A DNA stretch of 32,000 nucleotides from Clostridia bacterium. Its GTDB lineage: Bacteria > Bacillota > Clostridia > TANB77 > RGIG9151. Positions within the stretch are counted from its first letter, which is position 1. The number at the start of each line of letters is the position of its first letter. Under the pieces are notes generated by a model, which was not told the DNA's origin, did not search any database, and was given only the letters and a program-made list of their open reading frames with translations. A program made the position numbers and the translations under genes. Where the stretch lies: NCBI GenBank assembly GCA_017934955.1, contig JAGBIO010000005.1, positions 39,642 through 71,641 of the forward strand. Direction: 5' to 3'. Positions 1 to 31,378 of this stretch are shown here, in pieces.

Positions 1-360
1 AGAAATGAAGTAAGTTCGTTGTTGAAGGCGTCGTTTAAACCGGAATTTTTGAATCGGTTGGATGAAATTGTATTCTATAAACCGTTGATGAAGCAGGAAA
101 TCGGAAAGATTGTGGATTTGATGTTGAAGGATTTACAGAGACGGTTGGATTCGAAGCAGTTGAATCTTGTTGTGACGGATAAGGCGAAGGAATTTGTGAT
201 TGATAGCGGTTATGATCCGATCTACGGGGCAAGACCGTTGAAGAGATTTTTACAGCAGCAGGTGGAGACTTTGATTGCGAAGAAGATTATTGAGGGCAAT
301 TTGGATGTCGGAAGCGAGATTAAAGTGGATTATGATGGAGAGAAGCTGTTTATTGCTTAG
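1..360 (+). CDS. clpB: ClpB-type AAA+ disaggregase, C-terminal fragment (5' end lies outside the window)
   Basis: Frame 1 is open from base 1. FKPEFLNRLDEIVFYKPL and GYDPIYGARPLKRFLQQ are the sensor-2/C-terminal motifs of ClpB/Hsp104. Stop at 358-360. Confidence 0.8.
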   Translation, partial: RNEVSSLLKASFKPEFLNRLDEIVFYKPLMKQEIGKIVDLMLKDLQRRLDSKQLNLVVTDKAKEFVIDSGYDPIYGARPLKRFLQQQVETLIAKKIIEGNLDVGSEIKVDYDGEKLFIA

Positions 361-450
361 GACAGCATGAATGCTGTCCGTACAGAAAGATGAGATGATT
401 TGTGGACAGCATGAATGATGGTTTTTGTAGGGACAGCATTCATGCTGTCC
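360..450. repeat. REP-like hairpin cluster: full copy 360-379 (GGACAGCATGAATGCTGTCC), half copy 404-417, full copy 431-450 (loop TC, opposite polarity)
   Basis: Perfect 9+9 bp palindromes read directly. The first copy starts on the last base of the clpB stop codon. Confidence 0.9.
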
Positions 451-532
451 GTTGTATATTCTTAAATATTCAGATAATTTTCACATTTCTACAAATTAAC
501 ATCACATATTTTTGGTAAAATAATTATCGTAG

Positions 533-597
533 GGACACAATTCATTGTGTCCGAGAGTATAGACTGAATTAGGACACAATAAATTGTGTCCCTACAG
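533..597. repeat. Inverted doublet of the CACAAT stem subfamily (GGACACAATTCATTGTGTCC 533-552; GGACACAATAAATTGTGTCC 572-591, followed by CTACAG)
   Basis: Two perfect 20-bp palindromes flanked by CGTAGG...CCCTACAG, ending immediately upstream of the htrA RBS at 603-610. Confidence 0.9.
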
Positions 598-617
598 TAA
601 TTGAGGAGGATGATTTT

Positions 618-1814
618 ATGGAAAATAATGAATTTCATGAAAATGAATCTATTGTAAATGAGGAAAGTACAGTGATAGAACAAGAAGTGCCGCCGGCTCG
701 GGAGAAACGGAGAAAGTCGGGAAATGGTAGTGTTGTGGTTGTGATGTTGCTGTTGTTTGCAGTGATGCTTGGTTTTTCGGTGGGGAAATTGAGTGAGAAA
801 AAGGCGGATAGCAATTCTGAGAATCAGGGAGAGATTTATAACAATATTATTAAAACGATGTCGCTTGCCGGAAATGAAAATGCGGAATTGACGATTAAGG
901 ACATTGCAAAGCTTACGGAAAATTCGGTGGTGGAGATTTCGACGGAGACAGTGGTTCGGGGGACTTTTTTAGGACAGTTTATTTCAGAAGGTGGCGGTAG
1001 TGGCGTTGTTTTGAGCAGTGACGGATATATCGTGACGAATTACCATGTGATTGATGATGCCAGAAAAATTACTGTGAAATTGAGAAACGGTGAGGAATAT
1101 GAGGCTACTTTAATTGGAAAAAACAGCGAGAAGGATATTGCGGTTTTGAAGATTGAAAAAGACGGTTTGCAACCGGTTGTATTAGGCGATTCTTCGAAGT
1201 TGGAAGTAGGAGATACGGCGGTGGTTATCGGAAACCCGTTGGGATCTCTTGGTGGTACCGTGACGAATGGCATTATTAGTGCATTAGACAGGGAAATTGA
1301 TTTGGGAGATACCAAAATGAATTTGTTGCAGACAAATGCGGCAGTGAATCCGGGAAATTCCGGCGGAGGTTTGTTTAACGGAAAGGGAGAGTTGGTTGGA
1401 ATCGTGGTAGCGAAATCGGCGGGTTCGGATATTGAGGGAATCGGCTTTGCAATTCCGATTAACGATATTAAGGATACGATTTTGGAATTAAAGGACTACG
1501 GGTATGTGAGAGGAAAAGTGCAGCTTGGTGTGGTGCTGATTGATGTGACAAGTGAGAAGTTGGCGGATCTTTATCGTGTTGAGGAGACAGGTGTTTATGT
1601 GCAGAGTGTGATGAACGGATCGGATGGAGATGTTGCCGGGGTGAAAGCGGGAGACCGAATTGTAAGCTTTGCGGGAACTGAGATTAAGGAAGCAGAGGAG
1701 TTAAAAGGTGTGCTTGCGAAAATGAATCCGGGAGATACGGCGGAAATGGTGGTTTCGAGGAATGGAAGGAAACAAACCTTGAGAGTGAAGTTGAGTGAGT
1801 ATAAGGGCGAGTGA
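618..1814 (+). CDS. htrA: HtrA/DegP-like S1C serine protease with N-terminal membrane anchor and C-terminal PDZ domain
   Basis: RBS GAGGAGGA at 603-610. Catalytic triad context TNYHVI, DIAVLKI, GNSGGGL. TM segment VVVVMLLLFAVMLGF. PDZ-like C-terminus. Confidence 0.85.
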   Translation: MENNEFHENESIVNEESTVIEQEVPPAREKRRKSGNGSVVVVMLLLFAVMLGFSVGKLSEKKADSNSENQGEIYNNIIKTMSLAGNENAELTIKDIAKLTENSVVEISTETVVRGTFLGQFISEGGGSGVVLSSDGYIVTNYHVIDDARKITVKLRNGEEYEATLIGKNSEKDIAVLKIEKDGLQPVVLGDSSKLEVGDTAVVIGNPLGSLGGTVTNGIISALDREIDLGDTKMNLLQTNAAVNPGNSGGGLFNGKGELVGIVVAKSAGSDIEGIGFAIPINDIKDTILELKDYGYVRGKVQLGVVLIDVTSEKLADLYRVEETGVYVQSVMNGSDGDVAGVKAGDRIVSFAGTEIKEAEELKGVLAKMNPGDTAEMVVSRNGRKQTLRVKLSEYKGE

Positions 1815-1895
1815 AGTTGTGAATCGTAACTTCTTGACGTAGATTGTTTGTCGTATTACAATAGTTACAATCTATACGATAAATGAGGTGTTCAA

Positions 1896-2540
1896 ATGAT
1901 AAAAATATATCCTTCGATTTTGTCTGCAGATTTTTCGAAATTGGGAGAGGAAATTCGTGAAATTGATAATGCGGGTGCGGATGGTGTCCATATTGATGTG
2001 ATGGATGGCGTTTTTGTGCCGAATATTACATTTGGAATGCCGGTGGTGAAGGCGATTCGAAAGTGTAGCCGGCTTTTTTATGATGTGCATTTGATGATTG
2101 AGAAGCCGGAGCGGTATATTCAGGCTTTTGCGGATGCGGGAGCGGATGGAATTACGTTTCATATTGAGAGTACCGATTCGCCGGAGTGTGTGATTGATTT
2201 GATTCACGAGACGGGGAAGAAGGTTGGAATTTCGATAAAACCGAATACCCCGATTCCTTCGATGGATTTATTGAAGGAGGTTGACTTGGTTTTAGTGATG
2301 TCGGTGGAGCCGGGATTTGGCGGTCAGAAGTATCTGGAGGCAATGAATCGGAAGATTGAAGATTTGGCGCGGGTTCGTTATGAGCATGATTTGAAGTTTG
2401 AGATTGAGGTAGATGGTGGAATTAATTTGGAAAATGCGTCTGTTGTGACGAAATGTGGTGCGGATATTTTAGTGGCGGGAAAGACGGTTTTTGAAGCAGA
2501 GGATAAGAAGGAGTGTATGAGTAGATTAAGAGAGGGATAA
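1896..2540 (+). CDS. rpe: Ribulose-phosphate 3-epimerase
   Basis: IYPSILSADF, HIDVMDG.FVPN and VEPGFGGQK motifs. 214 aa, the typical length. Confidence 0.9.
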   Translation: MIKIYPSILSADFSKLGEEIREIDNAGADGVHIDVMDGVFVPNITFGMPVVKAIRKCSRLFYDVHLMIEKPERYIQAFADAGADGITFHIESTDSPECVIDLIHETGKKVGISIKPNTPIPSMDLLKEVDLVLVMSVEPGFGGQKYLEAMNRKIEDLARVRYEHDLKFEIEVDGGINLENASVVTKCGADILVAGKTVFEAEDKKECMSRLREG

Positions 2541-2546
2541 AAGAGT

Positions 2547-2749
2547 GGACAGCATGAATGCTGTCCGTACAGAAAAAGCAGAAATGATAAAATTGCACAA
2601 TGTGTAGGGACAGCATTTATGCTGTCCACAGAAAAAGCAGAAATGATAAAATTGCACAATGCGTAGGGACAGCATGAATGCTGTCCGTACAGAAAAAAGC
2701 AGAAATGATAAAAATTGTGCAATGCGTAGGGACAGCATTTATGCTGTCC
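2547..2749. repeat. Tandem array of 4 REP-like hairpins (cores 2547-2566, 2608-2627, 2667-2686, 2730-2749), period 59-63 bp, central dinucleotide alternating GA/TT/GA/TT
   Basis: Read directly. The inter-hairpin segments are near-identical (ACAGAAAAAGCAGAAATGATAAAATTGCACAATG[T/C]GTAGG), so the whole unit is repeated. Confidence 0.9.
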
Positions 2750-5789: not shown

Positions 5790-6491
5790 ATGCAAGAAAA
5801 TGACTTAATTATATATAAAAATAGTGATGGCAATATTATAGTAGATGCAATATACAAAGATGAAACATTGTGGTTAACACAAAAAGGTATGTCAAAAGTT
5901 TTTGATTGTTCTATAGATAATATTTCCTTACATTTAAAAAATATTTTTAAAGATAATGAACTAAATGAAAATTCAGTTGTCGAGGATTCCTCGGTAACTG
6001 CTTCTGATGGAAAAAACTATAAGACGAAAATATATAATTTGGATGCTATAATTGCAGTTGGATACAGAGTTAATTCTAAAAAAGCAACTGAATTTAGAAT
6101 TTGGGCAACAAAAGTGTTAAAAGAATATATGACTAAAGGATTTGCTTTAAATGATGAACGTTTCATTAAAGGTAATAAATATGATGCAAAATATTTTGAT
6201 GAATTGCTTGAAAGAATTAAAACTATTCGTGTTAGTGAAAGAATGGCATATCAAAAAATTACAGATTTATTTATCGCAACATCAACCGACTATAGTCCTA
6301 AATCAGAAGAAGCATATACATTCTTTAAAATAGTACAAAATAAATTGCATTATGCTATTTCCGGACATACTGCAGCTGAACTTATATATAATAGAGTGAA
6401 TTCAGAAAAAGAACATATGGGGCTTACAAATTGGAAAAATTCTCCCGATGATTTAATATATAAATATGATGTAGTAGTTGCTAAAAATTAA
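5790..6491 (+). CDS. RhuM-family protein, C-terminally truncated (about two thirds of the usual length)
   Basis: RBS AAAGGAG. NLDAIIAVGYRVNSKKATEFRIWATKVLKEY and HYAISGHTAAELIY match my recollection of the RhuM family. The ORF stops right after VVVAKN, where family members continue with AKNYL and about 100 more residues. Very AT-rich DNA. Confidence 0.65.
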   Translation: MQENDLIIYKNSDGNIIVDAIYKDETLWLTQKGMSKVFDCSIDNISLHLKNIFKDNELNENSVVEDSSVTASDGKNYKTKIYNLDAIIAVGYRVNSKKATEFRIWATKVLKEYMTKGFALNDERFIKGNKYDAKYFDELLERIKTIRVSERMAYQKITDLFIATSTDYSPKSEEAYTFFKIVQNKLHYAISGHTAAELIYNRVNSEKEHMGLTNWKNSPDDLIYKYDVVVAKN

Positions 6492-6498: not shown

Positions 6499-6939
6499 AG
6501 ATGTATTATTAGGAATAGTATCATTATGTACATAATTTCCTATTTACCACAAGCAATTAAATTAATTAAAACAAAAGAATCAAAAGATTTAAGCAAAACT
6601 GCTTAGATAATATGGGGTGTAAGCAGTTTTTCATATTCATTGTATGCATTTCTGTGTTCTGATGAATTTATGTTAAAATTTGAAACTACATTAGAATTTT
6701 CTGTTACTAATCAGACTTAAAATTATAAAAATGTTACGAACACTGTAGGGACAGCATTTATGCTGTCCACAGAAAAGGCGGAAAGCAGGACAGCATGAAT
6801 GCTGTCCCTACAATGGTTGTAGCATCATTATAAAAAGCTATAGTCTGACCTGTAACAATTTTCTTTTTGTTTACTAATACTATTATTGACGGTAAAATAT
6901 AGAAATAATAAAATAGAAGGTGATAAAAATGACAAATAA
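6499..6939 (+). pseudogene. SemiSWEET/PQ-loop transporter remnant: 5'-truncated, in-frame TAG at 6604-6606, interrupted by the MITE at 6703-6856
   Basis: Frame 1 reads ..IIMYIISYLPQAIKLIKTKESKDLSKTA*IIWGVSSFSYSLYAFL..FETTLEFS, which carries the PQ motif. After removing the MITE plus one TSD copy (162 bp, 54 codons) the frame continues FCLLILLLTVKYRNNK.., a plausible last TM helix with a basic tail. Confidence 0.6.
6703..6856. mobile_element. MITE copy A (154 bp): TIRs GTTACTAATCAGACT / AGTCTGACCTGTAAC, internal inverted doublet of CAGCAT-type hairpins (6749-6768, 6788-6807), 8-bp TSD AATTTTCT (6695-6702 and 6857-6864)
   Basis: TIRs, the perfect direct duplication and similarity to the second copy at 22354-22523 were all read directly. 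Confidence 0.8.
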
Positions 6940-7804
6940 CGATGAAAAGTTAACTAAAGTAGTAATAAACTGGTTCCCTGGACATATGGTGAAGGCGAAG
7001 AAGGAAATTAAGGATAACTTAAAATTGGTGGATACGGTTATTGAGATTATTGATGCGAGGATTCCGAAAAGCAGCAGAAATCCGGATTTTGATGAGTTGG
7101 TGGCGAACAAGCCTCGGATTATTGCGTTAAATAAGTTTGATTTGGCGGATGAAGCGGTAAATCGAGAGTGGATTTCTTTTTTTAAGAAAAACGGACAGGC
7201 TGCGGTGTTGATTAATTCGATAACCGGTGCCGGAATTAAAGAATTATTGGCTTGTGCTTATCGTTCGGTTTCCGAGAAGATGGAACGGAATGCGGAGCGT
7301 GGTCGTGTGGGAAGAAGTGTGCGCGCAGCAGTGATTGGAATTCCGAATGCCGGAAAATCTTCTTTTATCAATAAAGTGGCGAAGAGAACTGTGGCAAATG
7401 TGGGAAACAAGCCGGGTGTGACGAGAACAAAACAATGGATTCGAACGGATGCGGGCGTGGAGTTGATGGATACGCCGGGGATTCTTTGGCCGAAGTTTGA
7501 AAAAGAAGAAATCGGGTTGCATTTAGCGTTTACCGGTGCGATTCGTTCGGAAATTTTGGATAACGCGGAGATTGCGTTGAAGTTGATTGGAGACCTTCGA
7601 AAGTATTATGCGCAGGAGTTGTTTGGACGATATAAGATAGAGACGGCAGAGAGTGACACGGATTTGGAGATTATGGAGAAAATCGGGAAGCGGCGTGGTT
7701 GTATTGTTTCGGGCGGCGAAGTGGATTATGAAAAAACGGCGAACATTATTTTAGATGAATTTCGAAAGGGGACAATTGGAAGGATTAGTTTGGAGAGACC
7801 TTAG
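6929..7804 (+). CDS. rbgA: Ribosome biogenesis GTPase A (YlqF/RbgA, circularly permuted GTPase)
   Basis: INWFPGHM start motif. LNKFDL (G4) precedes GIPNAGKSS (G1) and DTPG (G3). The start was moved to ATG 6929, behind GAAGGTGA. Confidence 0.85.
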   Translation: MTNNDEKLTKVVINWFPGHMVKAKKEIKDNLKLVDTVIEIIDARIPKSSRNPDFDELVANKPRIIALNKFDLADEAVNREWISFFKKNGQAAVLINSITGAGIKELLACAYRSVSEKMERNAERGRVGRSVRAAVIGIPNAGKSSFINKVAKRTVANVGNKPGVTRTKQWIRTDAGVELMDTPGILWPKFEKEEIGLHLAFTGAIRSEILDNAEIALKLIGDLRKYYAQELFGRYKIETAESDTDLEIMEKIGKRRGCIVSGGEVDYEKTANIILDEFRKGTIGRISLERP

Positions 7805-7809
7805 AAAGA

Positions 7810-7882
7810 GGACACAATAAATTGTGTCCGTACGGAATGAGAAGAAAGGTAAAAAGATGTATGGACAGCATAAATGCTGTCC
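7810..7882. repeat. Direct tandem pair of hairpins of two different stem subfamilies (GGACACAATAAATTGTGTCC 7810-7829; GGACAGCATAAATGCTGTCC 7863-7882), each followed by GTACGGA[A/G]TGAGAAG[A/G]AAG
   Basis: Read directly. 53-bp period, conserved flank and compensatory stem difference. Confidence 0.9.
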
Positions 7883-7921
7883 GTACGGAGTGAGAAGGAA
7901 GCTAAAATAAGGAGCAAAAAG

Positions 7922-8599
7922 ATGAATTTTATTGAGTTGGAAGAGAAGAAGATGACGGAGGCAAGGGTTCGAAAGATTGAGGCAGAAAAAGAAAGATTAT
8001 TGAAAATGCAGCGATTTGAGAGACCTTTGTATGAAAAAGGGATACACTATATTGCGGGAATTGATGAAGTTGGTCGTGGTCCGCTTGCCGGTCCGGTAGT
8101 GACTTGTGCGGTGATTTTGGATCCGGAGACTTTGATTGAGGGAGTAAATGATTCGAAAAAGGTTTCGGAGAAGAAGCGGGAAAAATTGTTTGATGTGATT
8201 TTAGAAAATTGTGTGGCTTACGGAATCGGGATGGCGAGTGAGAAAGTGATTGATGAAATCAATATTTTAAATGCGACGAAACGGGCGATGTTGGAGTCGA
8301 TTGAGAATTTATCGGTTTATCCGGAACATATTTTGATTGATGCGGTAAGATTAGAGACCGAGATTCCGATTACGCCACTTATTAACGGAGATGCTCTTAG
8401 TATTTCGATTGCGGCGGCATCGATTGTGGCGAAGGTGACGAGAGATCGTTTGATGAGGGAGTACGATAGTATTTATCCGGAGTATGGTTTTGCACAAAAT
8501 AAGGGATACGGAACGGCGGCACATATTGAGGCGATTAAGAAATATGGTCCATGCCCGATTCACAGGAGGAGCTTCTTAAAAACAATTTTGGAAAAATAG
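7922..8599 (+). CDS. rnhB: Ribonuclease HII
   Basis: GIDEVGRGPLAGPVV and DSKK motifs. The tracked ORF start at 7874 lies inside a repeat hairpin. ATG 7922 behind AAGGAG (7909-7914) is preferred. Confidence 0.85.
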   Translation: MNFIELEEKKMTEARVRKIEAEKERLLKMQRFERPLYEKGIHYIAGIDEVGRGPLAGPVVTCAVILDPETLIEGVNDSKKVSEKKREKLFDVILENCVAYGIGMASEKVIDEINILNATKRAMLESIENLSVYPEHILIDAVRLETEIPITPLINGDALSISIAAASIVAKVTRDRLMREYDSIYPEYGFAQNKGYGTAAHIEAIKKYGPCPIHRRSFLKTILEK

Positions 8600-8740
8600 T
8601 TTTTAAGAAAGAATAAAGAAAAAAGAAGAAAGAAGAAAAAATGAAGTTTTTCGTTTTAACGAAAAACAACCAAGTTTATTATTTATTCAATATTCTTTAT
8701 TATTTATTCTTTAACGGTTTTCATTGGGGTGAGATTGTTT

Positions 8741-9043
8741 ATGGATATTCATGAGGTTAATAGGACGAATTATGTTTCGCAGGTGAATCCGGATGCGAAA
8801 CGAGATCGATTTCACAAGGGGAAAAAGTTTCGTTCGAGGATTAAAAATATTACGCGGGACGGAGAAGTGGAATTGGAGTTAGAGGACGGAATTATTTTGA
8901 ATGCACGTTTGGAGGAGCGAATTGCGGCGGGAATCGGAGATGTGGTGCTGTTTGAGATTACCGAGAGAACGGAGGAGCGAATTCAATTGAAGTATATTCC
9001 GGAGGAGGATGACGGAGAGAAGAGGTTTGATGTAAGAGTTTAG
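8741..9043 (+). CDS. Hypothetical small protein (100 aa), basic N-terminus and acidic C-terminus
   Basis: ORF with GGGGTGA RBS 8 nt upstream of ATG 8741. No family recognised with confidence. Confidence 0.5.
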   Translation: MDIHEVNRTNYVSQVNPDAKRDRFHKGKKFRSRIKNITRDGEVELELEDGIILNARLEERIAAGIGDVVLFEITERTEERIQLKYIPEEDDGEKRFDVRV

Positions 9044-9063
9044 AAAATGAGAAAGGATTTTGC

Positions 9064-9441
9064 ATGGAAAAGTATAATAAGATATTGGGGAATTTCGGCG
9101 AGGATGCAGCAGAAAAATTTTTGAAGCGGCAGGGTTATAAAATCCTTGAGCGAAATTACCGATGCCGATTTGGAGAAGTTGATTTGGTTGCGTTAGAGGA
9201 CGGTTGTTTGGTTTTCGTGGAAGTGAAAACACGCGTTTCGGAAAAGTACGGAAATCCTTCGAATGCAGTGAATGGGATGAAGCTACAGCATATGAAGAAG
9301 ACGGCTCTTTCTTATATCAATTATCGAAGGATGGGAGATTATCCGGCGAGATTTGATATTGCGGAAGTGTTTGCGGATAGCGGAGAAAAGGGATTTGAGA
9401 TTAAGAAGATTCATTTAATTAAGAATATTTTTTTGTATTGA
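9064..9441 (+). CDS. yraN: YraN-family (UPF0102) endonuclease-like protein
   Basis: GEDAAEKFLKRQGYKILERNYRCRFGEVDLVA..VFVEVKTR is the typical YraN signature, and the gene follows rnhB as it does in many Firmicutes. Confidence 0.8.
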   Translation: MEKYNKILGNFGEDAAEKFLKRQGYKILERNYRCRFGEVDLVALEDGCLVFVEVKTRVSEKYGNPSNAVNGMKLQHMKKTALSYINYRRMGDYPARFDIAEVFADSGEKGFEIKKIHLIKNIFLY

Positions 9442-9482
9442 TAGAAATGATTGAATTTAATGAAGACTCAAAGTGAGTGTAG

Positions 9483-9670
9483 GGACAGCATGAATGCTGT
9501 CCGTACAGTAAATTAAGAATTAAAGTGGGAATATGGACATCAAATTAAGAACTAAAGTGAGTGTAGGGACAGCATGAATGCTGTCCGTACAGTAAATTAA
9601 GAATTAAAGTGGGAATATGGATATCAAATTAAGAACTAAAGTGAGTGTAGGGACAGCATTTATGCTGTCC
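9483..9670. repeat. Tandem array of 3 hairpins (cores 9483-9502, 9567-9586, 9651-9670), exact 84-bp period
   Basis: The unit GTGTAGGGACAGCATGAATGCTGTCCGTACAGTAAATTAAGAATTAAAGTGGGAATATGGA[C/T]ATCAAATTAAGAACTAAAGTGA occurs 2.4 times. The last core has loop TT. Confidence 0.9.
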
Positions 9671-9713
9671 GCGAAAAGGCACAAAGTAAATTTTGTATTA
9701 AGGGGCGAGGAAT

Positions 9714-11027: not shown

Positions 11028-11041
11028 AGCGGAGGTAATTT

Positions 11042-11509: not shown

Positions 11510-11529
11510 GGACAGTATGAACGCTGTCT
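11510..11529. repeat. Degenerate hairpin copy (GGACAGTATGAACGCTGTCT followed by GTACACAG)
   Basis: Three mismatches to the family consensus, immediately after the nrdR stop codon. Confidence 0.6.
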
Positions 11530-11592
11530 GTACACAGAAGGTATATAGGAAAGAAAAGAACAAAAGAAGAAAAAGGAGAGGAGTCTTGTTTC

Positions 11593-16448: not shown

Positions 16449-16468
16449 GGACAGCATGAATGCTGTCC
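16449..16468. repeat. Single hairpin copy (GGACAGCATGAATGCTGTCC). On the minus strand it is followed by ATTTTTGTT.
   Basis: Read directly. It lies 30 nt downstream of the mini-flagellin stop codon on the minus strand, so it is shaped like an intrinsic terminator. Confidence 0.85.
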
Positions 16469-16497
16469 GTACGGTTCTATGAAACGATATTTTTATA

Positions 16498-16938: not shown

Positions 16939-16998
16939 GGACAGCATGAATGCTGTCCACAGAATAGGCAGAAAAGCAGGACAGCATAAATGCTGTCC
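16939..16998. repeat. Direct doublet of hairpins (16939-16958 loop GA; 16979-16998 loop AA) with spacer ACAGAATAGGCAGAAAAGCA
   Basis: Read directly. Confidence 0.9.
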
Positions 16999-17083
16999 GT
17001 ACATCATTATAAGCAAATATGTCTGCCTTGTAATTTCTCGATGCAAAATTTTTGAAAAAATACTGTGCAAATCTCAAAAAATT

Positions 17084-19718: not shown

Positions 19719-19802
19719 GGGACGTCGAGGACGCCGTCCCCTACGAAATAAAAGAGGGGATTATATTTGAAAAGCGGGACGTCGAGGACGCCGTCCCCTA
19801 CG
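19719..19802. repeat. Two tandem copies (57-bp period) of a GC-rich hairpin variant, GGGACGTCGAGGACGCCGTCCCCTACG
   Basis: Copies at 19719-19745 and 19776-19802, each preceded by ATATTTGAAA[G/A][A/G]C. The outer GGGAC...GTCCCCTAC matches the flanks of the main family. Confidence 0.8.
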
Positions 19803-21049: not shown

Positions 21050-21051
21050 TT

Positions 21052-21483
21052 ATGATGTATTCTGAAAAAGTATTAGATCATTTCTCCAACCCAAGAAACG
21101 TTGGAGAAATATCGGATGCCAATGGTATTGGAGAGGTTGGAAATCCGAAGTGTGGAGATATTATGAAGATTTATTTGAAAATTGAAAATGATATTATCCA
21201 AGATGTAAAGTTTCAAACATTTGGTTGCGGTGCAGCTGTTGCGACAAGCAGTATGGCGACGGAATTGATTAAGGGTAAGACGATTCAAGAGGCAATGCAG
21301 CTTACCAATAAAGCGGTTGTAGAAGCGTTGGACGGGCTTCCTCCGGTGAAATTGCATTGTTCCGTGTTGGCGGAAGAGGCTGTGAAGGAAGCGATTAATA
21401 ATTATTTGAAGGAAAACGGACGAGCTTCGGAAGCAGTAGAAATTTGTGGCGGATGTTGTCATAGTTGCGATAAGCATGAGTAG
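21052..21483 (+). CDS. nifU: Fe-S cluster scaffold (NifU/IscU N-terminal type) with Cys-rich C-terminal tail
   Basis: GNPKCGD, FGCGAA and LHCS cluster ligands. Tail CGGCCHSCDKHE. Confidence 0.85.
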   Translation: MMYSEKVLDHFSNPRNVGEISDANGIGEVGNPKCGDIMKIYLKIENDIIQDVKFQTFGCGAAVATSSMATELIKGKTIQEAMQLTNKAVVEALDGLPPVKLHCSVLAEEAVKEAINNYLKENGRASEAVEICGGCCHSCDKHE

Positions 21484-21696
21484 CGAGAAGGCGGGGAGGA
21501 ATCCTCGTCTTTTCTATTGTAAATCAAAGGACTTTGCTTGCAGAGCAACAAGGTTTCGGAAAATCCGATTGTAGTCTATGATTGCGTTGATGGGTTAGGT
21601 CCTTATTTGTAGATTTACGTTTTTGTTATAATCTTGAGTTGAAATTTGCTTTTGGGAAGAATATATTGTATAATAAAAATGTAGGGAGGAAATAGA

Positions 21697-21963
21697 ATGC
21701 CGGAGTTGTGTAGATTTTACAATATAATTATAAAAATGTTATTTTCGGATAATATTAAACATAATAAACCACATATCCATGTATTTTATAATGAATATGA
21801 GGCGTCAATTGGTTTGGATGGTGAGTTACTGGCAGGAAGCATTCCCGTAGCTCAATTAAAACTTGTTCAAGCGTGGATTGTTTTGCATGAAGAGGAATTA
21901 TATTCTGCATGGAATAATGCTGTTAGAAATATACCGTTTAATAAAATAGAGCCATTAAGATAA
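21697..21963 (+). CDS. DUF4160-like small protein
   Basis: The pattern F..I.I.M...D...H..PH.HV.Y.EYEA.I......L.G.....Q..LV..W...H..EL...W matches my recollection of DUF4160. GGGAGG RBS. AT-rich islet. Confidence 0.6.
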   Translation: MPELCRFYNIIIKMLFSDNIKHNKPHIHVFYNEYEASIGLDGELLAGSIPVAQLKLVQAWIVLHEEELYSAWNNAVRNIPFNKIEPLR

Positions 21964-21975
21964 GGAGGGAATTCG

Positions 21976-22275
21976 ATGTATATCGTTGATGGAATTGCTT
22001 ATGCCGGAGAGCAAACACCGGAAATTAAAGTAAAGTCAGTAAGAGCGTTATCAGATTATAAGCTTTGGGTTAGATTTAGCGATAATTCCCAAAAAATATT
22101 TGATTTTAAGAATCTTTTGGAATTTCCTTGTTATCAGCCATTAAAAGATAATGATTTATTTAATAGTGTATATGTAGATTTTGGAATTGTTGTTTGGAAT
22201 AATGGAGAAATAGATGTTTCTCCTGAAAAGCTCTATGCAGAAGGTGTTCCGGTAGAGGATGAACTTACTGCTTAG
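21976..22275 (+). CDS. DUF2442-like small protein
   Basis: V.SV.ALSDYKLWVRFSDN..K.FDFK.LL....YQPL.D..LF..V.VD.G.VVWNNGE.D.SPE.LY matches my recollection of DUF2442. AGGAGGG RBS 12 nt after the upstream stop codon. Confidence 0.6.
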   Translation: MYIVDGIAYAGEQTPEIKVKSVRALSDYKLWVRFSDNSQKIFDFKNLLEFPCYQPLKDNDLFNSVYVDFGIVVWNNGEIDVSPEKLYAEGVPVEDELTA

Positions 22276-22353
22276 CTATTTTGTGATAGGGTAAGAGGAA
22301 TGATGTTCTGAGAAGAATGATTTTAGAACATCATTTTTTCTGTTTAAATTTTG

Positions 22354-22523
22354 GTTACCAATCAGACTTAATAATTTTCTATATGGCCGAAATGTTCTGT
22401 ATTCCTTTGTAGGGACACAATTCATTGTGTCCTAATTCTACTGTCTGCCTATTCTGCGGACACAATAAATTGTGTCCCTACAGTATTTCTGGCTTCACTA
22501 TAAGTTTGAGTCTGAATTGTAAC
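22354..22523. mobile_element. MITE copy B (170 bp): TIRs GTTACCAATCAGACT / AGTCTGAATTGTAAC, internal inverted doublet of CACAAT-type hairpins (22413-22432, 22458-22477), 8-bp TSD AAATTTTG (22346-22353 and 22524-22531)
   Basis: TIRs, TSD and arm similarity to copy A were read directly. Confidence 0.8.
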
Positions 22524-22552
22524 AAATTTTGAAATTTTGTTGGAAAAATGTA

Positions 22553-22581
22553 TTGACTTTTTATGCGGATGGTGGTATTTT
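22553..22581 (+). promoter_or_regulatory. Sigma-A promoter of the hrcA operon (TTGACT-N17-TATTTT)
   Basis: Hexamers at 22553-22558 and 22576-22581, placed just upstream of CIRCE as in other hrcA operons. Confidence 0.55.
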
Positions 22582-22592
22582 ATATCTTGAAA

Positions 22593-22619
22593 TTAGCAGT
22601 CGGGTTTTGAGAGTGCTAA
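22593..22619 (+). promoter_or_regulatory. CIRCE operator (HrcA binding site)
   Basis: TTAGCAGTC-GGGTTTTGA-GAGTGCTAA against the consensus TTAGCACTC-N9-GAGTGCTAA, with one mismatch. Confidence 0.9.
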
Positions 22620-22638
22620 TTTGAGAGGAAGATAAAAA

Positions 22639-23325
22639 ATGATTCTTGATAATAGGAAAGAACGAATTTTGCAAGCAATTGTGGATTACTATGTAAATCG
22701 TGCAGAGCCTATTGCCTCGAAAATCATCGCAGATGTTTATGGATTGGATTTAAGTTCCGCGACGATTCGGAATGAGATGGCCGAAATGGAGGGAATGGGA
22801 TTAATTGAAAAGCCTCATACTTCTGCAGGAAGAATTCCGTCAGATTTGGGATATCGGTATTATGTGGATTCTTTGATGGAGGAACATGTGTCGGAGGAGG
22901 AGCAGGAGAATGTGAAGCGACTTTTGGAGGAGAGTCAGAAAGATATCCTTCAGAAGATTTCGATGGCGTTGTCCGGTGCGACACATTATACGACGATTGC
23001 ATTTGACGATGATGGAATTGTGTTATATGGTAGAAACAATGTGTTTGATTTTCCGGAATTTAACGATGTGGATAGTTTGCGGAAGTTTATGTATTTGTTG
23101 GAGGAGGAAGAGATGATAAAGGATTTCTTCCAAAAGATTCATAATTCCGATATTACGGTGACCATCGGAAAGGAAAATCAATTTGAACAAATGAGAGATT
23201 ACAGTTTAGTGACGTTTTCTTATCATGATTTAGGAGATATAGCGATAATCGGACCGAAACGAATGGATTACAGTAAGGTTATCGGGTATATAAAATATTT
23301 ACTGGAACAGGAAAGAGGAGGTTAA
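22639..23325 (+). CDS. hrcA: Heat-inducible repressor HrcA, unusually short (228 aa)
   Basis: N-terminal wHTH (R.ILQAIV..Y....EPI.S..I......LSSATIRNEMAE.E..GLIEKPHTSAGRIP). C-terminal IAIIGPKRMDYSKVI. The middle region is shorter than the roughly 340 aa I recall as typical. Confidence 0.85.
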   Translation: MILDNRKERILQAIVDYYVNRAEPIASKIIADVYGLDLSSATIRNEMAEMEGMGLIEKPHTSAGRIPSDLGYRYYVDSLMEEHVSEEEQENVKRLLEESQKDILQKISMALSGATHYTTIAFDDDGIVLYGRNNVFDFPEFNDVDSLRKFMYLLEEEEMIKDFFQKIHNSDITVTIGKENQFEQMRDYSLVTFSYHDLGDIAIIGPKRMDYSKVIGYIKYLLEQERGG

Positions 23326-23328
23326 CAA

Positions 23329-23820
23329 ATGGGAGATACAGAGGAAAATGTTGCTTTGGAGAATGAAATTGCAACAGAAGAGAAAGCTACAAATGCTGCA
23401 GCGGATGAGTATTTCGCTCAATTACAGCGTGTGATGGCTGATTTCGATAATTATCGTAAGAGGGTGACGAAGGAAAAAGAAGGGCTTTATACGATTATTT
23501 CTGCAGAACTGATTACAGAGTTTTTACCGGTTTTGGACACTTTGGAAAAGAGTGTGGCGATGGAGATAAAGGATGACTCGGCGAAGGCATGGCACGATGG
23601 TGTTGTGATGGTTTGCAATCAGTTTGAGGAAGTTTTAAAGAAGCTTGGGGCAGAAGAAATTAAGGCGGTCGGTGAGAAGTTTGATCCGAATTTGCATGAT
23701 GCGGTTATGCATGTGGAAGATGATACATTAGAGGAAAATACCATTACAAAGGTATTAAAGAAGGGTTATAAGTTAAAGGACAGAATCATACGGCATAGTA
23801 TGGTTGTTGTGGCGAATTAA
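23329..23820 (+). CDS. grpE: Nucleotide exchange factor GrpE
   Basis: R..ADFDNYRKR motif, FDPNLH.AV, and its position between hrcA and dnaK. Confidence 0.9.
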   Translation: MGDTEENVALENEIATEEKATNAAADEYFAQLQRVMADFDNYRKRVTKEKEGLYTIISAELITEFLPVLDTLEKSVAMEIKDDSAKAWHDGVVMVCNQFEEVLKKLGAEEIKAVGEKFDPNLHDAVMHVEDDTLEENTITKVLKKGYKLKDRIIRHSMVVVAN

Positions 23821-23840
23821 AGTTGAGGCATGTTTGAGGT

Positions 23841-23992
23841 GGACACAATAAATTGTGTCCGTACAGAGGGATGTGCAAATAGGAAGTAGAGAGGCATGTT
23901 GGAGGATGGACACAATAATTTGTGTCCGTACAGAGGGATGTGCGATTAGGAAAGAGAGGCATGTTTGAGGGTGGACACAATAAATTGTGTCC
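23841..23992. repeat. Tandem array of 3 CACAAT-type hairpins (23841-23860, 23908-23927, 23973-23992), period 65-67 bp, between grpE and dnaK
   Basis: The unit GGACACAATAAATTGTGTCCGTACAGAGGGATGTGC[A/G]A[A/T]TAGGAA..AGAGGCATGTT.GAGG is repeated. The middle copy has a shifted centre (TAAT). Confidence 0.9.
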
Positions 23993-24033
23993 GTACAAAG
24001 GAATGTGCAAATAGGTAAGAGAGACATATTTGA

Positions 24034-25914
<1,881 letters not shown>

Positions 25915-25942: not shown

Positions 25943-25984
25943 TATTCTTGACTAAGAGAAAAAAGAATATCTGAAAAAATGTAG

Positions 25985-26004
25985 GGACAGCATTCATGCT
26001 GTCC
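25985..26004. repeat. Single hairpin copy (TGTAGGGACAGCATTCATGCTGTCCGCAGAAAAGGCGG) between dnaK and dnaJ
   Basis: Read directly. It carries the left half of the doublet spacer but no second hairpin. Confidence 0.85.
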
Positions 26005-27243: not shown

Positions 27244-27257
27244 TAAAGAGAAAGGCA

Positions 27258-27277
27258 GGACAGCATGAATGCTGTCC
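27258..27277. repeat. Single hairpin copy (GGACAGCATGAATGCTGTCCGTACA) after the dnaJ stop codon
   Basis: Read directly. Confidence 0.85.
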
Positions 27278-27350
27278 GTACAATAAACGGATTTTTTATT
27301 GTGAAGTGTGCACTATGAGACAATTTGGTGAGTTTTTTAGACTGTTTTTT

Positions 27351-27382
27351 AAGAAGAAAATTAAAGTTTTCTTCTTTTTTTT
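27351..27382 (+). terminator. Intrinsic terminator of the dnaK operon
   Basis: AAGAAGAAAA-TTAAAG-TTTTCTTCTT followed by TTTTTT. Confidence 0.75.
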
Positions 27383-27423
27383 CGATAAATTTCTTAGAAA
27401 GCCCATAAAAATTTGAAAAAGTA

Positions 27424-27451
27424 TAAAGTTTATGTGAACTTATGCCGATAT
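27424..27451 (+). promoter_or_regulatory. Sigma-28-type promoter of the flaG-fliD-fliS operon
   Basis: TAAA-N16-GCCGATAT, with a perfect -10 octamer at 27444-27451. Confidence 0.7.
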
Positions 27452-27494
27452 AACAAATGTAGGAGAAGATTTTTCACACATGGAGGTGTGTATT

Positions 27495-27869
27495 ATGAAA
27501 GTAGAAATGGGTAATGAACAAAGAGTTTATGCGAATCCGGAGGTGAGCAAGGTACAACCGGAGAAAGCGACTCGAGCAGAAGTGAAGGAGGCTTTGGAGA
27601 CCGCTTCTAAGAGAGAGGGACTTACAGACAACGAGGCAAAAAAGGTAAAAGATGTTGTTGAGAAGATGAACAAGGAACTTGAAATGACGGATACCGCAAT
27701 CAAGTTTAAGGTTCATGAGAGTAAAGAAGGAACTCTTAATAAAGTCTCTATTAAAGTTGTGGAAAGAGAGAGCGAGAAGGTTATTATTGAAATTCCTTCC
27801 GAAGAAGCGATTGAATTTTCCGAGAAAATGGATGAAATTACGGGCATGCTATTTGATCACAGTAGATAA
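27495..27869 (+). CDS. flaG: Flagellar protein FlaG
   Basis: The C-terminal pattern L.F.VHE....V.I.VV.RES.KVI.EIP.EE.I.F is FlaG-like. The gene precedes fliD as in the B. subtilis yvyC-fliD-fliS-fliT operon. Start at ATG 27495, behind GGAGG. Confidence 0.75.
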   Translation: MKVEMGNEQRVYANPEVSKVQPEKATRAEVKEALETASKREGLTDNEAKKVKDVVEKMNKELEMTDTAIKFKVHESKEGTLNKVSIKVVERESEKVIIEIPSEEAIEFSEKMDEITGMLFDHSR

Positions 27870-27939
27870 TTGTGAGAGAATAGCAGCTTGTGATGTACTT
27901 TTGTGAGAGTAAAAATCTCTTTGGTTAGGAGGTAAGAAT

Positions 27940-30081
27940 ATGGCTGTAAACAGGATTACCGGCTTAGCGACCGGCATGGATACTGATGCGCTTATCGAAC
28001 AGTTAATGAGTGCCAGTCGTGCACCGTTGACGAAATTAGAACAGAAAAACACAAAGATAGAATGGCAGAGACAAGCGATGTTGGATATCAATTCGAAACT
28101 TCTTTCTTTCCGGACGGCTGCACTTGATATGAAATTACAGGGAACCTATAAGTCTTATACAGCAACCTCTTCGAATTCTAATTTGGTGTCTGCGTCAGCG
28201 ACGACAGAGGCGGAGGAAGGCGTATATACTTTTAAAGTTTCTCAACTTGCGACAAAGACTACTTTGGAAGGTAGAGCGATTACGGAGCAAATCAAGTCTT
28301 CGGAAGGATTTGCGATTGGTGCTCTTGATGTGGCGGGAAAGGAATTTTATATTAATTTTAATGGAGAAAAGAAAAAAATCAGCTTTGGAGAGAGCGAAAG
28401 TTATAACGCGCCTGCGGATTTAGCGTCTGCGTTACAATCAAAAGTGGATGATACGTTTGGTGCAAATCAAATTAAAGTGACGCAGGTAACTTTGTCCGGT
28501 AAAACAACTCTTCGTTTTGAAAGTGATTCTGCGTTGAATTTGCCTGTTACTGTAGCAAGTTCGGAGACAGCGGAGAAAGATTTCCTTTCTGCGGTAAACA
28601 TTAAAGATGGAAGTACGACAAGTTTTAGCTTGTCTTCGCGTATTGGAGATTTAATGAGTTCCGGTTTTGATGCGGAAGGCAATTTTACGATTTCAGTAAG
28701 AGATAGAGAGTTTACTTTTAATAAAGATCAGACATTAAGTGATGTATTTAATACCATTAATAAAGCTGAGGATTTGGATGTTACGGCGAGATATGACAGC
28801 GTAAACCGAAAGGTTGTATTTGAGAGATCCAGTACCGGTGATGGAAAGGATTTAAAAATCGGTGGAAGTCGTCAGTTCTGGTCGGCACTTAAAATGTCTA
28901 CAACACAGGCTGCTGTTTCCGGTCAAAATGCTAAATTTGATATTACAACGCCGGATGGTCAGACGGTTAAAGATGTTGAAATGGCAAGTAACAGCTTTAC
29001 TTATAAAGGGGTTACAGCTACTTTATTGAATGCAAATCCTGATGAAATGGTTTCGGTTACGGTTTCGAAAAATGTGGATGCAGTTTATGAAAAGATTGAG
29101 AATTTTGTAAACAGTTACAATGATTTGTTGGTATCGCTAAATAAAGCATATAATGAAGAGACAACAGGTTATGATCCTCTTACCGATGAGGAAAGAGAAA
29201 GCTTGTCGGATACCCAGCAGGAACAGTGGGAAGAAAAAGCAAAGCAGGGAATTTTAAGAAGAGATTCTACGATTAAGAGCACGATTACGAGTTTGCGTTC
29301 GGCAGTTACTTCTTACGTGTCAGGTTCGGGCATTTCTTCATTATTTCAAATCGGAATCAGTACAACTCAGTATGATTCGGTAAATAGTGAGAATAACGGT
29401 AAGTTGGTGATTGATAAGGATAAATTAAAAGAGGCGATTACCAATGATATTGATGGTGTTACTTCGTTATTTACTAATACAGCAAAGCAGATTCAGGGAA
29501 ATAAGTTGTCGGATACGAATTTGAATTTGGATGGAAAATCCTTTACCGTGACATACGGCGGTTCTACAAAGACGATTACTCTTGAGGGGTCGTATGATTT
29601 GAGTAACGCAAGTTCGGCTTCGGATTTTGAAGATTATATGAAAGAGAAATTTGCGTCGGCGTTTGGGGAAGGCTGTATTTCGGTCTCTTATTCCGGCGGT
29701 AAATTGTTATTTAACTCGTTAAAGAATGTGAATATGAGTTTTCAGGCGGGTAGCGACGGTAATGATGCGTTGAGCTTGTTTAACGTTGCGGATGGTGCAA
29801 AATATGATAACAACGAGAGAGGTTTTGCGGTTAAGATTTATGATATTTGTACTACTTCGATGAATTCCATTATTGATAAAGCCGGTTCTACCTCTACGAT
29901 TCTTGATGAGAGTGATCTTGGTAAAAAGATGAAGCAGATTAAACAATCGATTGCGACGCAGCAGGAGAGATTGGAACGGTTGGAAGAAAGATATTACAGT
30001 CAGTTTGCTGCGATGGAAGAGGCTATTAACAACATGAACTCGCAGAGTTCTTATTTGCAAAGTATGTTAAATGGTGGTTAA
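27940..30081 (+). CDS. fliD: Flagellar filament cap protein FliD (long form, 713 aa)
   Basis: N-terminal ITGLATGMDTDALIEQLM..R.P and C-terminal E.RY..QF.AME..I..MNSQ..YL are FliD signatures. Confidence 0.85.
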   Translation: MAVNRITGLATGMDTDALIEQLMSASRAPLTKLEQKNTKIEWQRQAMLDINSKLLSFRTAALDMKLQGTYKSYTATSSNSNLVSASATTEAEEGVYTFKVSQLATKTTLEGRAITEQIKSSEGFAIGALDVAGKEFYINFNGEKKKISFGESESYNAPADLASALQSKVDDTFGANQIKVTQVTLSGKTTLRFESDSALNLPVTVASSETAEKDFLSAVNIKDGSTTSFSLSSRIGDLMSSGFDAEGNFTISVRDREFTFNKDQTLSDVFNTINKAEDLDVTARYDSVNRKVVFERSSTGDGKDLKIGGSRQFWSALKMSTTQAAVSGQNAKFDITTPDGQTVKDVEMASNSFTYKGVTATLLNANPDEMVSVTVSKNVDAVYEKIENFVNSYNDLLVSLNKAYNEETTGYDPLTDEERESLSDTQQEQWEEKAKQGILRRDSTIKSTITSLRSAVTSYVSGSGISSLFQIGISTTQYDSVNSENNGKLVIDKDKLKEAITNDIDGVTSLFTNTAKQIQGNKLSDTNLNLDGKSFTVTYGGSTKTITLEGSYDLSNASSASDFEDYMKEKFASAFGEGCISVSYSGGKLLFNSLKNVNMSFQAGSDGNDALSLFNVADGAKYDNNERGFAVKIYDICTTSMNSIIDKAGSTSTILDESDLGKKMKQIKQSIATQQERLERLEERYYSQFAAMEEAINNMNSQSSYLQSMLNGG

Positions 30082-30109
30082 TCAAAAATGTTAAATCGGA
30101 GGCGGATTT

Positions 30110-30517
30110 ATGGCACTGAATAAGGCGGTTTATCAATATCAGCAAAATTCGATTATGACGGCGACCCCGGAGGAGCTTACCCTTATGCTGTATAATGGTT
30201 GCATCAAGGGGATTAAAATGACGAAGATTGCGATAGAAGATAATGACTATGAGAAGGGAAATTATTATATATGTAAGGCCCAGGCGATTATTCGTGAATT
30301 GCGTGCGACCTTAGATATGAAATATGAAATTTCAAAGAATTTGTATGATTTATATACGTATTTTTTGGATAGATTAATAGAGGCGAATGTGAAGAAAGAT
30401 ACGCAAATTTTGGATGAAGTGGTTGGTTTTGTGACGGAATTGAGAGATACTTGGGCAGAGGCTATGAAGGATGCGAGAATAAAACAATCGGGTAAGATTC
30501 CGGCAAAGGAAGTTTAG
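30110..30517 (+). CDS. fliS: Flagellin-specific export chaperone FliS
   Basis: Y....I.TA.PEELTLMLY.G.IK, A..II.EL...LD and I..L...W match the FliS pattern. Confidence 0.85.
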   Translation: MALNKAVYQYQQNSIMTATPEELTLMLYNGCIKGIKMTKIAIEDNDYEKGNYYICKAQAIIRELRATLDMKYEISKNLYDLYTYFLDRLIEANVKKDTQILDEVVGFVTELRDTWAEAMKDARIKQSGKIPAKEV

Positions 30518-30536
30518 AGAATGAGGTGCAGGATAA

Positions 30537-31010
30537 ATGGATCTGAATTCTATAATGAATGATTTGATTGGAATCAGTAAGGAAAAGTGCAGATATTTAG
30601 AGGAAATTTATGTTTTAACAGAGGGACAAACGGCTGCGATTAAAAATGAAAGTATGGACGACTTGAATGATTTAATTGCGGGAAAACAATTGAAGATTGA
30701 TCATATTAAGGAATTGGATATTCAATTTGAGGGAATTACAGATCAGATTAAAAAAGAGTTTCAGATTAAAAGTTTGAGTGAATTAAAGTGTGAGAATGCG
30801 GAAATTTTGCAGGATGAAATTCGTAATATTTATGCGGTGTTGCGGAAGATTAATGAGGTTGAGAAGGAAAACAGTGCGGCATTGAATGAGAGGAAGGATG
30901 AGTTGCACGATAAAATCTCACATACGAATAAAGGGAAAATTGCGATGATGCAGTATAGTGGCGGTAGCAACTATATGGATGCCGTGTTTTTTGATAAGAA
31001 GATTAAGTAG
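30537..31010 (+). CDS. FliT/FlgN-like flagellar export chaperone (helical, 157 aa)
   Basis: The call rests on position after fliS, predicted all-helical composition and the absence of any other recognisable motif. Assignment is by synteny. Confidence 0.5.
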   Translation: MDLNSIMNDLIGISKEKCRYLEEIYVLTEGQTAAIKNESMDDLNDLIAGKQLKIDHIKELDIQFEGITDQIKKEFQIKSLSELKCENAEILQDEIRNIYAVLRKINEVEKENSAALNERKDELHDKISHTNKGKIAMMQYSGGSNYMDAVFFDKKIK

Positions 31011-31011
31011 A

Positions 31012-31059
31012 ATACAAGCCGTTGAGAGATCGTTTAGACTCAATGGCTTGTATTTTTTT
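31012..31059 (+). terminator. Intrinsic terminator of the flaG-fliD-fliS-fliT operon
   Basis: ATACAAGCCGTTGAG-N12-CTCAATGGCTTGTAT (one G.T pair) followed by TTTTTTT. Confidence 0.8.
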
Positions 31060-31321
31060 GTTGTTTTTGTGGCGTATACTTTAATGCGGCGATTAAGTCT
31101 TTCCCGATAACTAAATGTTCGGTTAGTAGTTTTTGAATGAGATTTGCGACGATTTTTCCGTAATAGGTTTCAAAGATATCGACGATATTTTTGGGATTTT
31201 TTAATTGATTTTGAAATGTTACTGTTTTCAAAAAAGGAAAGAGAAACGAGAAAGAGAGAAAACTGGTGTATGGGAGTTACAGGTAAGTCTCAAATCTATA
31301 GAGAAGGCACAAACACTGTAG

Positions 31322-31378
31322 GGACAGCATTCATGCTGTCCGCAGAAAAGGCAGAAAAGCAGGACGGCATAGCAGCGG
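31322..31378. repeat. Hairpin copy (31322-31341, loop TC) plus doublet spacer GCAGAAAAGGCAGAAAAGCA and a decayed second hairpin (GGACGGCATAGCAGCGG)
   Basis: Read directly. The second arm has lost its palindromy. Confidence 0.8.

Follow-up and report, generated by a model that had tools for sequence, protein, structure and literature searches.

This analysis concerns a family of short hairpins that crowds the intergenic DNA of a 32,000-nt stretch (the window) of the genome of an uncultured ruminant-gut Clostridia bacterium (40.4% G+C). We conclude that the hairpins are probably repetitive extragenic palindromic (REP) elements of the GTAG-footed class, spread by a REP-associated tyrosine transposase (RAYT) encoded elsewhere in the genome. 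Identity as REPs is well supported by the features of the sequences: a GTAG-type foot, a short perfect palindrome, an extragenic position, clustering, inverted doublets and a core that recurs in many other genomes. On these grounds the description of the family in an earlier note on this DNA, as resembling REPs and the bacterial interspersed mosaic elements (BIMEs) built from them, can be retained. The family is a known kind of selfish or domesticated DNA, and what is notable about it is the Clostridia host, the density, a GTAC foot that points one way only, a core found across phyla and the contrast with a sister species.

A pattern search for GGAC-N12-GTCC found 28 intact hairpins in the window, 17 with the stem GGACAGCAT, nine with GGACACAAT and two with a GC-rich stem, together with three degenerate copies, one of them a half copy (coordinates in Table 1), in good agreement with the figure of about 30 in 32 kb given in the earlier note. 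A covariance model of the family run without filters recovered the same copies as the pattern search, and a strict footed pattern gave three matches where shuffled sequence gave none. The readable DNA of the host genome amounts to 41.4 kb, that is, the window and 9.4 kb upstream of it on the same contig (L091); the upstream part holds ten more hairpins, which raises the number to 38 copies at a local density of about 0.9 per kb. Stems are perfect or near-perfect in 37 of the 38 copies. The 28 intact and three degenerate copies are spread over about 14 loci and all lie outside the 31 genes of the window, and the covariance model with filters off had no match at E<=1 within the coding sequence of the window, so that the statement that every copy is intergenic stood. 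Two copies touch gene ends, one at the clpB stop codon (360) and one (7863) that covers the first ATG of the rnhB open reading frame (ORF), the true start of which is probably at 7922 on alignment to the sister species. Hairpins start 0-41 nt past stop codons and lack T-runs, both as reported before, and at gathering thresholds no Rfam family matched the window. In independent short-read assemblies of the same strain several contigs begin or stop precisely at a hairpin (window positions 569-2569, 9504, 9630 and 27255-31326, where contigs L092, L087, L088 and L095 have their ends), as expected for a repeat that is common throughout the genome.

Each unit consists of a 9-bp stem around two central nucleotides, with a foot of 4 nt, GTAG or GTAC, at one side. 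When the foot is placed 5', the 38 copies divide into 21 with GTAC, 14 with GTAG, two GC-rich copies with GTAG one base further out and one copy with none, and each of the 36 canonical copies has TC or TT at its centre. This rule means that the polarity of the hairpin is real, which is borne out by the covariance model, whose scores are 10-20 bits higher on one strand than on the other; the proposal that the central dinucleotide sets polarity holds in 35 of the 36 canonical copies. The flank had been given as GTCC(C/G)TAC, of which the G form is the usual one, since minus-oriented copies mostly have GTAC (21/38), whereas CTAC occurs only in three inverted doublets. Every one of the 21 GTAC feet lies on the minus strand, and for this one-way orientation replication bias and transcription bias are not separable in these data; 28 of the 31 genes are on the plus strand, and the intergenic share of the window is 15.8%. 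The GC skew of the plus strand is strong (+0.35 over the window, +0.28 to +0.44 per 4-kb block), and this is probably the leading strand. Single hairpins fold as RNA at -11 to -14 kcal/mol. Three copies have a foot at both ends, GTAG 5' and GTAC 3'; the longer helix that results contains a single G-G mismatch and reaches -19.4 kcal/mol as RNA. Fold z-scores over the range of -11 to -19 kcal/mol are -4 to -6.

Two neighbouring positions distinguish the two main stems, a G-C pair having become C-G and a C-G pair A-T, and both differences are mirrored on the other arm. That stem differences are always mirrored had been seen in the window and holds in a larger sample: in an alignment of 42 sequences (A3; 35 distinct copies of the host genome and seven from other genomes) 99.7% of cells form a standard pair, and eight of the nine stem pairs have changed on both sides. 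None of 500 shuffles reached the observed pairing, and sliding the partner by 1-3 columns left 27-46% paired. Both stem types are found within one array. The description as a perfect 9+9 palindrome is correct for the canonical stems but not for the GC-rich copies, which have a mismatch and a 4-nt loop, form a 57-nt tandem duplicate and are matched by the covariance model at E 0.07-0.12 only. In place of the three stem subfamilies of the earlier note there are really two strict ones and a more distant GC-rich relative.

Three loci (529, 6745 and 22409) are inverted doublets with the feet outermost, and that at 6745-6811 folds as one 25-bp hairpin (-47.6 kcal/mol as RNA). No direct repeats flank the inverted doublets of the window, as expected for Y1-type transposition. 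The order within doublets, with TY first and RA second, is as described before except at 16939, which has GA and is footless; the conserved spacer is present in 6749/6788, 16939/16979 and 31322/31362, but 22413/22458 has its reverse complement and 533/572 another sequence. Orientation alternates at 2547-2749, and direct arrays in which hairpin and flank are repeated together stand at 7810, 9459 and 23821 and, upstream of the window, at -2471, the periods being about 60, 84 and 65-67 nt for clusters of the window and 48 nt for the upstream one. The alternating and inverted loci may be likened to BIMEs, but many clusters are direct tandem arrays.

The exact 18-base core GGACAGCAT was found in at least 86 stretches when one genome per species was scanned, and among the matches listed the hosts are Chloroflexota/Anaerolineae (with many copies each), several Clostridia, Muribaculum, Bacteroidetes and Poribacteria. 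Of 93 core copies listed in these other genomes, 83 are footed on exactly one side, 79 of them with GTAG/CTAC; as the foot was not included in the search pattern, this one-sidedness is not due to chance. Viral contigs gave four isolated matches to the core, and a search of metagenome contigs with the core plus GTAC gave one unrelated match only.

In four other genomes the same hairpins, or sister hairpins, flank and interrupt RAYT genes. A 172-aa ORF of a Muribaculum contig (L081) lies between arrays of hairpins of the forms GTAG-GGACAGCAT and GGACGCCAT-CTAC. It is an ORF whose sole PDB match is 4ER8 (E. coli TnpA-REP), in an alignment that takes in the HUH region and that of the catalytic Tyr, and whose sole NCBIfam match is NF047646, the REP-associated tyrosine transposase; Pfam gave no match to it at E<=0.001, and some of its homologues are named 'REP element-mobilizing transposase RayT' or carry PF01797. 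A Clostridia assembly (L084/L109) encodes a RAYT (near-identical protein P0028) with GGACAGCAT-CTAC just upstream and with the stems GGGACGCAT, GGGCGGCAT and GGGGCACAT around and inside the gene. All four of these stem types retain a CAT-NN-ATG apex and most have a recognisable GTAG/CTAC foot, so from its surroundings one RAYT appears to live with several compensatory stem types, which fits the coexistence of subfamilies in the window. Hairpins of the form GTAG-GGAACGCAT lie on both sides of and within the gene for the RAYT P0148 in L096, and a GTAGAGACAGGTT hairpin lies within the gene for P0263 in L097. The ruminant data set of the host also contains a relative (L101/L102), with an elongation factor P (EF-P) 86% identical to that of the window, which encodes a 171-aa RAYT (NF047646, E 2.9e-16) with GTAG-GGACAATTC within the gene, GGGCAATTC-CTAC just upstream and an inverted pair of GC-rich GTAG-footed hairpins downstream; further copies occupy the efp-nifS-nifU spacers of this relative. 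The best family for the neighbouring RAYTs is NF047646 (E 2.5e-7 to 3.7e-19), and their motifs are NHFH/NHIH, WQ and YIRNN/YIHNNP/YIEGNP. The hallmarks of subclass 2.4 RAYTs are NH[IF]H, WQ, YIxNN(P), in-frame REP insertions between HUH and Tyr, and double-foot REPs (PMC6006769), and judged by such motifs the match of the neighbouring RAYTs is to this subclass, which is group 4 of Bertels (PMC6006769). Long in-frame insertions of translated REP hairpins between HUH and Tyr, including for example VGTQHDAS and RDAINCVRE, are also present in the Bacteroidales RAYT homologues P0114, P0126, P0135 and P0142. The hairpin-recognising mobilisation system suggested by the earlier note was thus found beside such hairpins in L081, L084/L109, L096 and L101, but was not seen in the 41 kb of the host.

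A sister species, represented by three contigs (L098-L100), is collinear with positions 6944-24779 of the window in the same gene order. Its EF-P is 97% identical and its DNA 76-88% identical to that of the window (coding DNA differs by 12-24%), and its G+C content is 35% as against 40% in the window. The shared region contains 22 intact hairpins in the window and a single intact pair in the sister species, which has no GGAC hairpin across that region; the stem is GGACAGCAT or GGACACAAT in the window and GATTAGCAT in the sister. The intact pair of the sister (GATTAGCAT.TC.ATGCTAATC-GTAC and an imperfect partner) occupies the flaC-pyk site, is orthologous to 16939/16979 and differs from the stems there by compensated changes. 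Decayed remnants are found in the sister at yraN-pdp, upstream of hrcA and at grpE-dnaK; the yraN-pdp spacer is 272 nt long in the window and 62 nt in the sister, the grpE-dnaK spacer 234 and 102 nt. The orthologous pair and the decayed remnants indicate that some sites were occupied before the species split. Comparison of the two sequences suggests that the copies stayed perfect and multiplied in the host lineage and decayed in the sister, and that the family either expanded or was maintained in the former.

This contrast agrees with a transposase that actively maintains or re-seeds the copies and speaks, short of proof, against inert fossils. Fossil REPs would be hairpins that a RAYT once spread and that have remained after its loss, either inert or kept for host functions; the failure to find a RAYT in the 41 kb read and the appearance of decay in the sister species would both be in keeping with this, as would the known REP families that have no cognate RAYT. 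However, the near-perfection of 37 of the 38 stems persists despite the 12-24% coding divergence from a sister in which orthologous copies have decayed, and uniformity of this degree calls for recent spread, continuing homogenisation or strong selection; we consider loss of the RAYT an unlikely account of the family.

It may also be asked whether the hairpins are mainly RNA elements, that is, 3'-end stabilisers, decay barriers, weak terminators or sites of ribosome stalling, selected at each site and mobile only incidentally. They are stable as RNA, pairing is kept by compensatory change, and copies lie 0-41 nt past stops and in operon spacers (grpE-dnaK-dnaJ). E. coli REPs play such roles, as in malE-malF stabilisation and in the translation effects of stop-proximal REPs. 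Against this, Rfam has no match, T-runs are absent and separate canonical terminators stand at 5315, 13354, 15398/15435 and 18576, while the sister species manages without hairpins at the same operons; left unexplained would be the unpaired conserved foot, the divergent-promoter copies (16939/16979), the arrays of up to five and the association with RAYTs elsewhere. As the main explanation this is quite improbable, but RNA-level roles of the hairpins are plausible, and an RNA role is compatible with the REP explanation as a secondary one beside it. Intrinsic terminators as such were ruled out, as copy 431 alone looks like a terminator on the plus (sense) strand and canonical terminators are found elsewhere. 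A CRISPR array was ruled out by sequence between hairpins that is itself repeated at 88-95% identity and by the spread of copies over 14 loci, and operator sites for a dimeric regulator were also rejected. It is very improbable that the hairpins are miniature elements moved not by a RAYT but by a palindrome-associated IS200/IS605 TnpA or, as miniature inverted-repeat transposable elements (MITEs), by a DDE transposase: the inverted doublets of 67-73 nt do look like MITEs, hairpins are acted on by IS200-type TnpA as well and the IS200 model NF033573 is a weak second-best match for the RAYT candidates, but the doublets have neither target-site duplications nor flanking direct repeats and most copies are single 24-nt hairpins, below MITE size (which rules out MITEs), the GTAG foot is a REP signature (PMC3733652), and every hairpin-adjacent transposase is matched best by far by the RAYT model (E 1e-16 to 1e-19 as against 1e-3).

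If the hairpins are REPs spread by a RAYT, the enzyme, an HUH/Y1 protein (TnpA-REP) of the implicated subclass 2.4 (Quentin et al.; group 4 of Bertels et al.), would be encoded elsewhere in the host genome, would recognise the hairpin plus foot in single-stranded DNA, and would cut beside the foot and rejoin the strand. Its activity would spread copies into intergenic DNA without target-site duplications and keep them uniform, and local tandem duplication would then build the arrays. It would presumably accept GTAG and GTAC feet alike. Copies within operons (rpe-clpB, grpE-dnaK-dnaJ) may act in addition as RNA 3'-end barriers, and those adjacent to stop codons as translation dampers, in both cases as E. 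coli REPs do.

Several observations weigh against this account. No RAYT gene is present in the window or the 9.4 kb upstream, the whole 41 kb read (for the window the earlier note had already said as much), and searches for RAYT homologues (877 and 4693 proteins) found none tied to the host assembly, the best match to the L101 RAYT scoring only about 100 bits. The RAYTs found beside hairpins score 31-69 bits, under the curated NCBIfam cut-off of 80. The predominant foot, GTAC, is not a described REP foot (those described are GT[AG]G), so that the foot specificity of a RAYT here is an assumption, and among the matches listed in other genomes only three of the 93 core copies have it. Many clusters are direct tandem repeats, for which slippage or recombination suffices without a transposase. 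Finally, the comparison for presence and absence of copies that had been proposed did reveal lineage-specific hairpins relative to the syntenic sister, but the same-species contigs retrieved, which are 99.3-100% identical to the window, have neither gained nor lost a REP and so give no sign of current activity.

That the unusual features are all real biology is a more tentative proposition, and one we would lean against if pressed: the population would be among the densest REPs known, the specificity of the RAYT for GTAG as its foot would have moved or widened to GTAC, and REP-RAYT pairs would move between phyla. Were the 41 kb representative, about 0.9 copies per kb would amount to thousands of REP copies per genome. 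Were the whole proposition true, a RAYT would keep this population uniform with a foot shifted from GTAG to the self-complementary GTAC, itself a possible specificity variant, and a core common to at least four phyla would reflect a REP-RAYT pair moving between them as a unit with the hairpin near-constant. A dense uniform population beside a decayed sister also bears on whether REP populations need a RAYT to persist.

REP repeats have practical consequences as well, since they fragment metagenome assemblies and yield spurious in-frame N-terminal extensions and ORFs, as with the 947-aa clpB and the 81-aa ORF at 31144-31389. An array of five hairpin copies at L091 6900-7150, which is 2.5-2.2 kb upstream of the window, repeats every 48 nt and stands in frame, and the 947-aa annotation of clpB takes it in as an N-terminal extension; past the array an AAGGAGG site precedes the real start. 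The 81-aa ORF spans a REP and is probably not a gene.

Table 1. Positions of the hairpin copies and clusters in the window.
Feature	Position	Strand	Details
REP copy	360..383	-	Stem GGACAGCAT, minus-strand foot GTAC; first G shared with clpB stop codon (1 nt)
Half copy GGACAGCATGAATGA	404..418	.	
REP copy	427..450	+	Foot GTAG, stem GGACAGCAT, centre TC
Inverted doublet, REPIN-like	529..595	.	GTAG-GGACACAAT (529-552, +), GGACACAAT-CTAC (572-595, -)
Four-copy array, period ~60 nt	2547..2749	.	Cores 2547, 2608, 2667, 2730; polarity -, +, -, +
Double-foot copy in 2547-2749 array	2663-2690		GTAG and GTAC
Inverted doublet	6745..6811	.	GTAG-GGACAGCAT / GGACAGCAT-CTAC, spacer 19 nt
Two direct copies, rbgA-rnhB	7810..7886	-	7810 stem GGACACAAT, 7863 stem GGACAGCAT; both GTAC foot
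Array, period 84 nt	9459..9675	.	Double-foot 9479-9506 and 9563-9590; GTAG alone 9647-9670
Degenerate copy GGACAGTATGAACGCTGTCT + GTAC	11510..11533	-	3 nt past nrdR stop; covariance model E 0.0046
Single copy, GTAC foot	16449..16472	-	Between two minus-strand flagellin genes
Pair	16939..17002	-	16939 footless, 16979 GTAC foot; orthologous to sister's intact pair (L098 7622/7662)
Two tandem GC-rich copies	19719..19801	-	GGGACGTCG-AGGA-CGCCGTCCC + CTAC, 57-nt period, one stem mismatch each
Inverted doublet	22409..22481	.	GTAG-GGACACAAT / GGACACAAT-CTAC, spacer 25 nt
Three GGACACAAT copies, GTAC foot, grpE-dnaK spacer	23821..24017	-	Cores 23841, 23908, 23973; period 65-67 nt
Copy in GGACACAAT array	23908		One unpaired position
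Single copy, GTAG foot	25981..26004	+	Between dnaK and dnaJ
Single copy, GTAC foot	27258..27281	-	14 nt past dnaJ stop codon
GTAG-footed copy + decayed partner	31318..31378	.	31318-31341, spacer 20 nt, partner 31362-31378

The gene set of the window is of Clostridia type (htrA, rpe, two clpB/clpC-like genes, rbgA, rnhB, yraN, pdp and nrdR, together with a beta-CASP RNase, flagellin, pyk, efp, nifS-nifU, hrcA-grpE-dnaK-dnaJ and flaG-fliD-fliS), and its proteins match MBP3284055-MBP3284070 exactly, which belong to a metagenome-assembled genome of the ruminant-gut data set XIEF21. Several features of these genes were seen in passing. The 656-aa glycine-rich protein (PF21722) encoded at 13399-15369, with four 177-nt tandem repeats at 14206-15087, is missing entirely from the syntenic sister species. 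A DhiT-like toxin and DUF2442 pair at 21697-22275 has a TPM-phosphatase and LemA in its place in the sister, which suggests that an accessory cassette has been exchanged between nifU and hrcA. The 542-aa beta-CASP metallo-beta-lactamase RNase adjoining nrdR (11593-13221) is kept in the sister; its score with the type VII CRISPR Cas14 model is 456 bits, for a cut-off of 800, and with archaeal aCPSF1 337 bits. Beside the full flagellin gene a 105-aa ORF (16498-16815), of the same length in the sister, corresponds to the flagellin C-terminal domain, and a RhuM-family gene (5790-6491) lies within an AT-rich 1.6-kb gap from clpC to rbgA that may be a small inserted island. HrcA (22639-23325) is 228 aa long in both species and matches its 338-position model in two stretches; upstream of hrcA (22593-22619) is a CIRCE operator, TTAGCAGTC-N9-GAGTGCTAA, with one mismatch to the consensus and unrelated to the REP family.

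To our knowledge research on REP-RAYT systems has been almost wholly in Proteobacteria, and no report of them in Firmicutes or Clostridia was found in the literature searched. The REPs of E. coli are far less dense than those described here, at a few hundred copies in 4.6 Mb. The REP/BIME system of E. coli and its TnpA-REP (RayT/YafM, PDB 4ER8) share with the present family extragenic GTAG-footed hairpins just past stop codons, clusters of alternating orientation (here 2547-2749) and recognition of single-stranded DNA by an HUH/Y1 enzyme (here proposed). E. coli REPs, however, are longer, imperfect, bulged and of other sequence, in contrast to the perfect 9-bp palindromes and many direct tandem arrays found here, and the E. 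coli RAYT belongs to subclass 2.2 (PMC6006769, PMC8266576), unlike the subclass 2.4 implicated here. The REPINs (inverted REP doublets regarded as the unit of replication) of Pseudomonas fluorescens are alike in being inverted doublets with the feet outside that make one long hairpin (529-595, 6745-6811 and 22409-22481), but here such doublets account for only three or four of the roughly 14 loci of the window, singlets and direct arrays being predominant. GTAG-tagged repeats are known in Proteobacteria, Cyanobacteria, Chloroflexi and the Planctomycetes-Verrucomicrobia-Chlamydiae (PVC) group (Di Nocera et al. 2013, PMC3733652), where neither Firmicutes nor the core GGACAGCAT is mentioned in the text; like the hairpins of the window they are short stem-loops with GTAG at one end, which lie for the most part between genes of the same direction and are often found as oppositely oriented pairs. 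Compared with the REPs of subclass 2.4 (Quentin et al. 2018, PMC6006769; group 4 of Bertels et al. 2017), which have been described mainly from Cyanobacteria and Bacteroidetes, the present family differs in its Clostridia host, in the GTAC foot of 21 of the 38 copies, in its density of about 0.9 per kb, in that no cognate RAYT was seen in the 41 kb of the host, and in the second foot of its double-foot copies, which is GTAC and not the expected reverse complement CTAC. It shares with them, in its GTAG-footed copies, the 5' GT[AG]G foot at the base of a G-C-rich stem, and also double-foot forms, RAYTs with the motifs NH[IFV]H, WQ and YIxNNP, a scattered distribution across phyla, and REPs that flank the RAYT gene or stand in frame between HUH and Tyr (the L081 homologues, L096, L097, L101 and L109).

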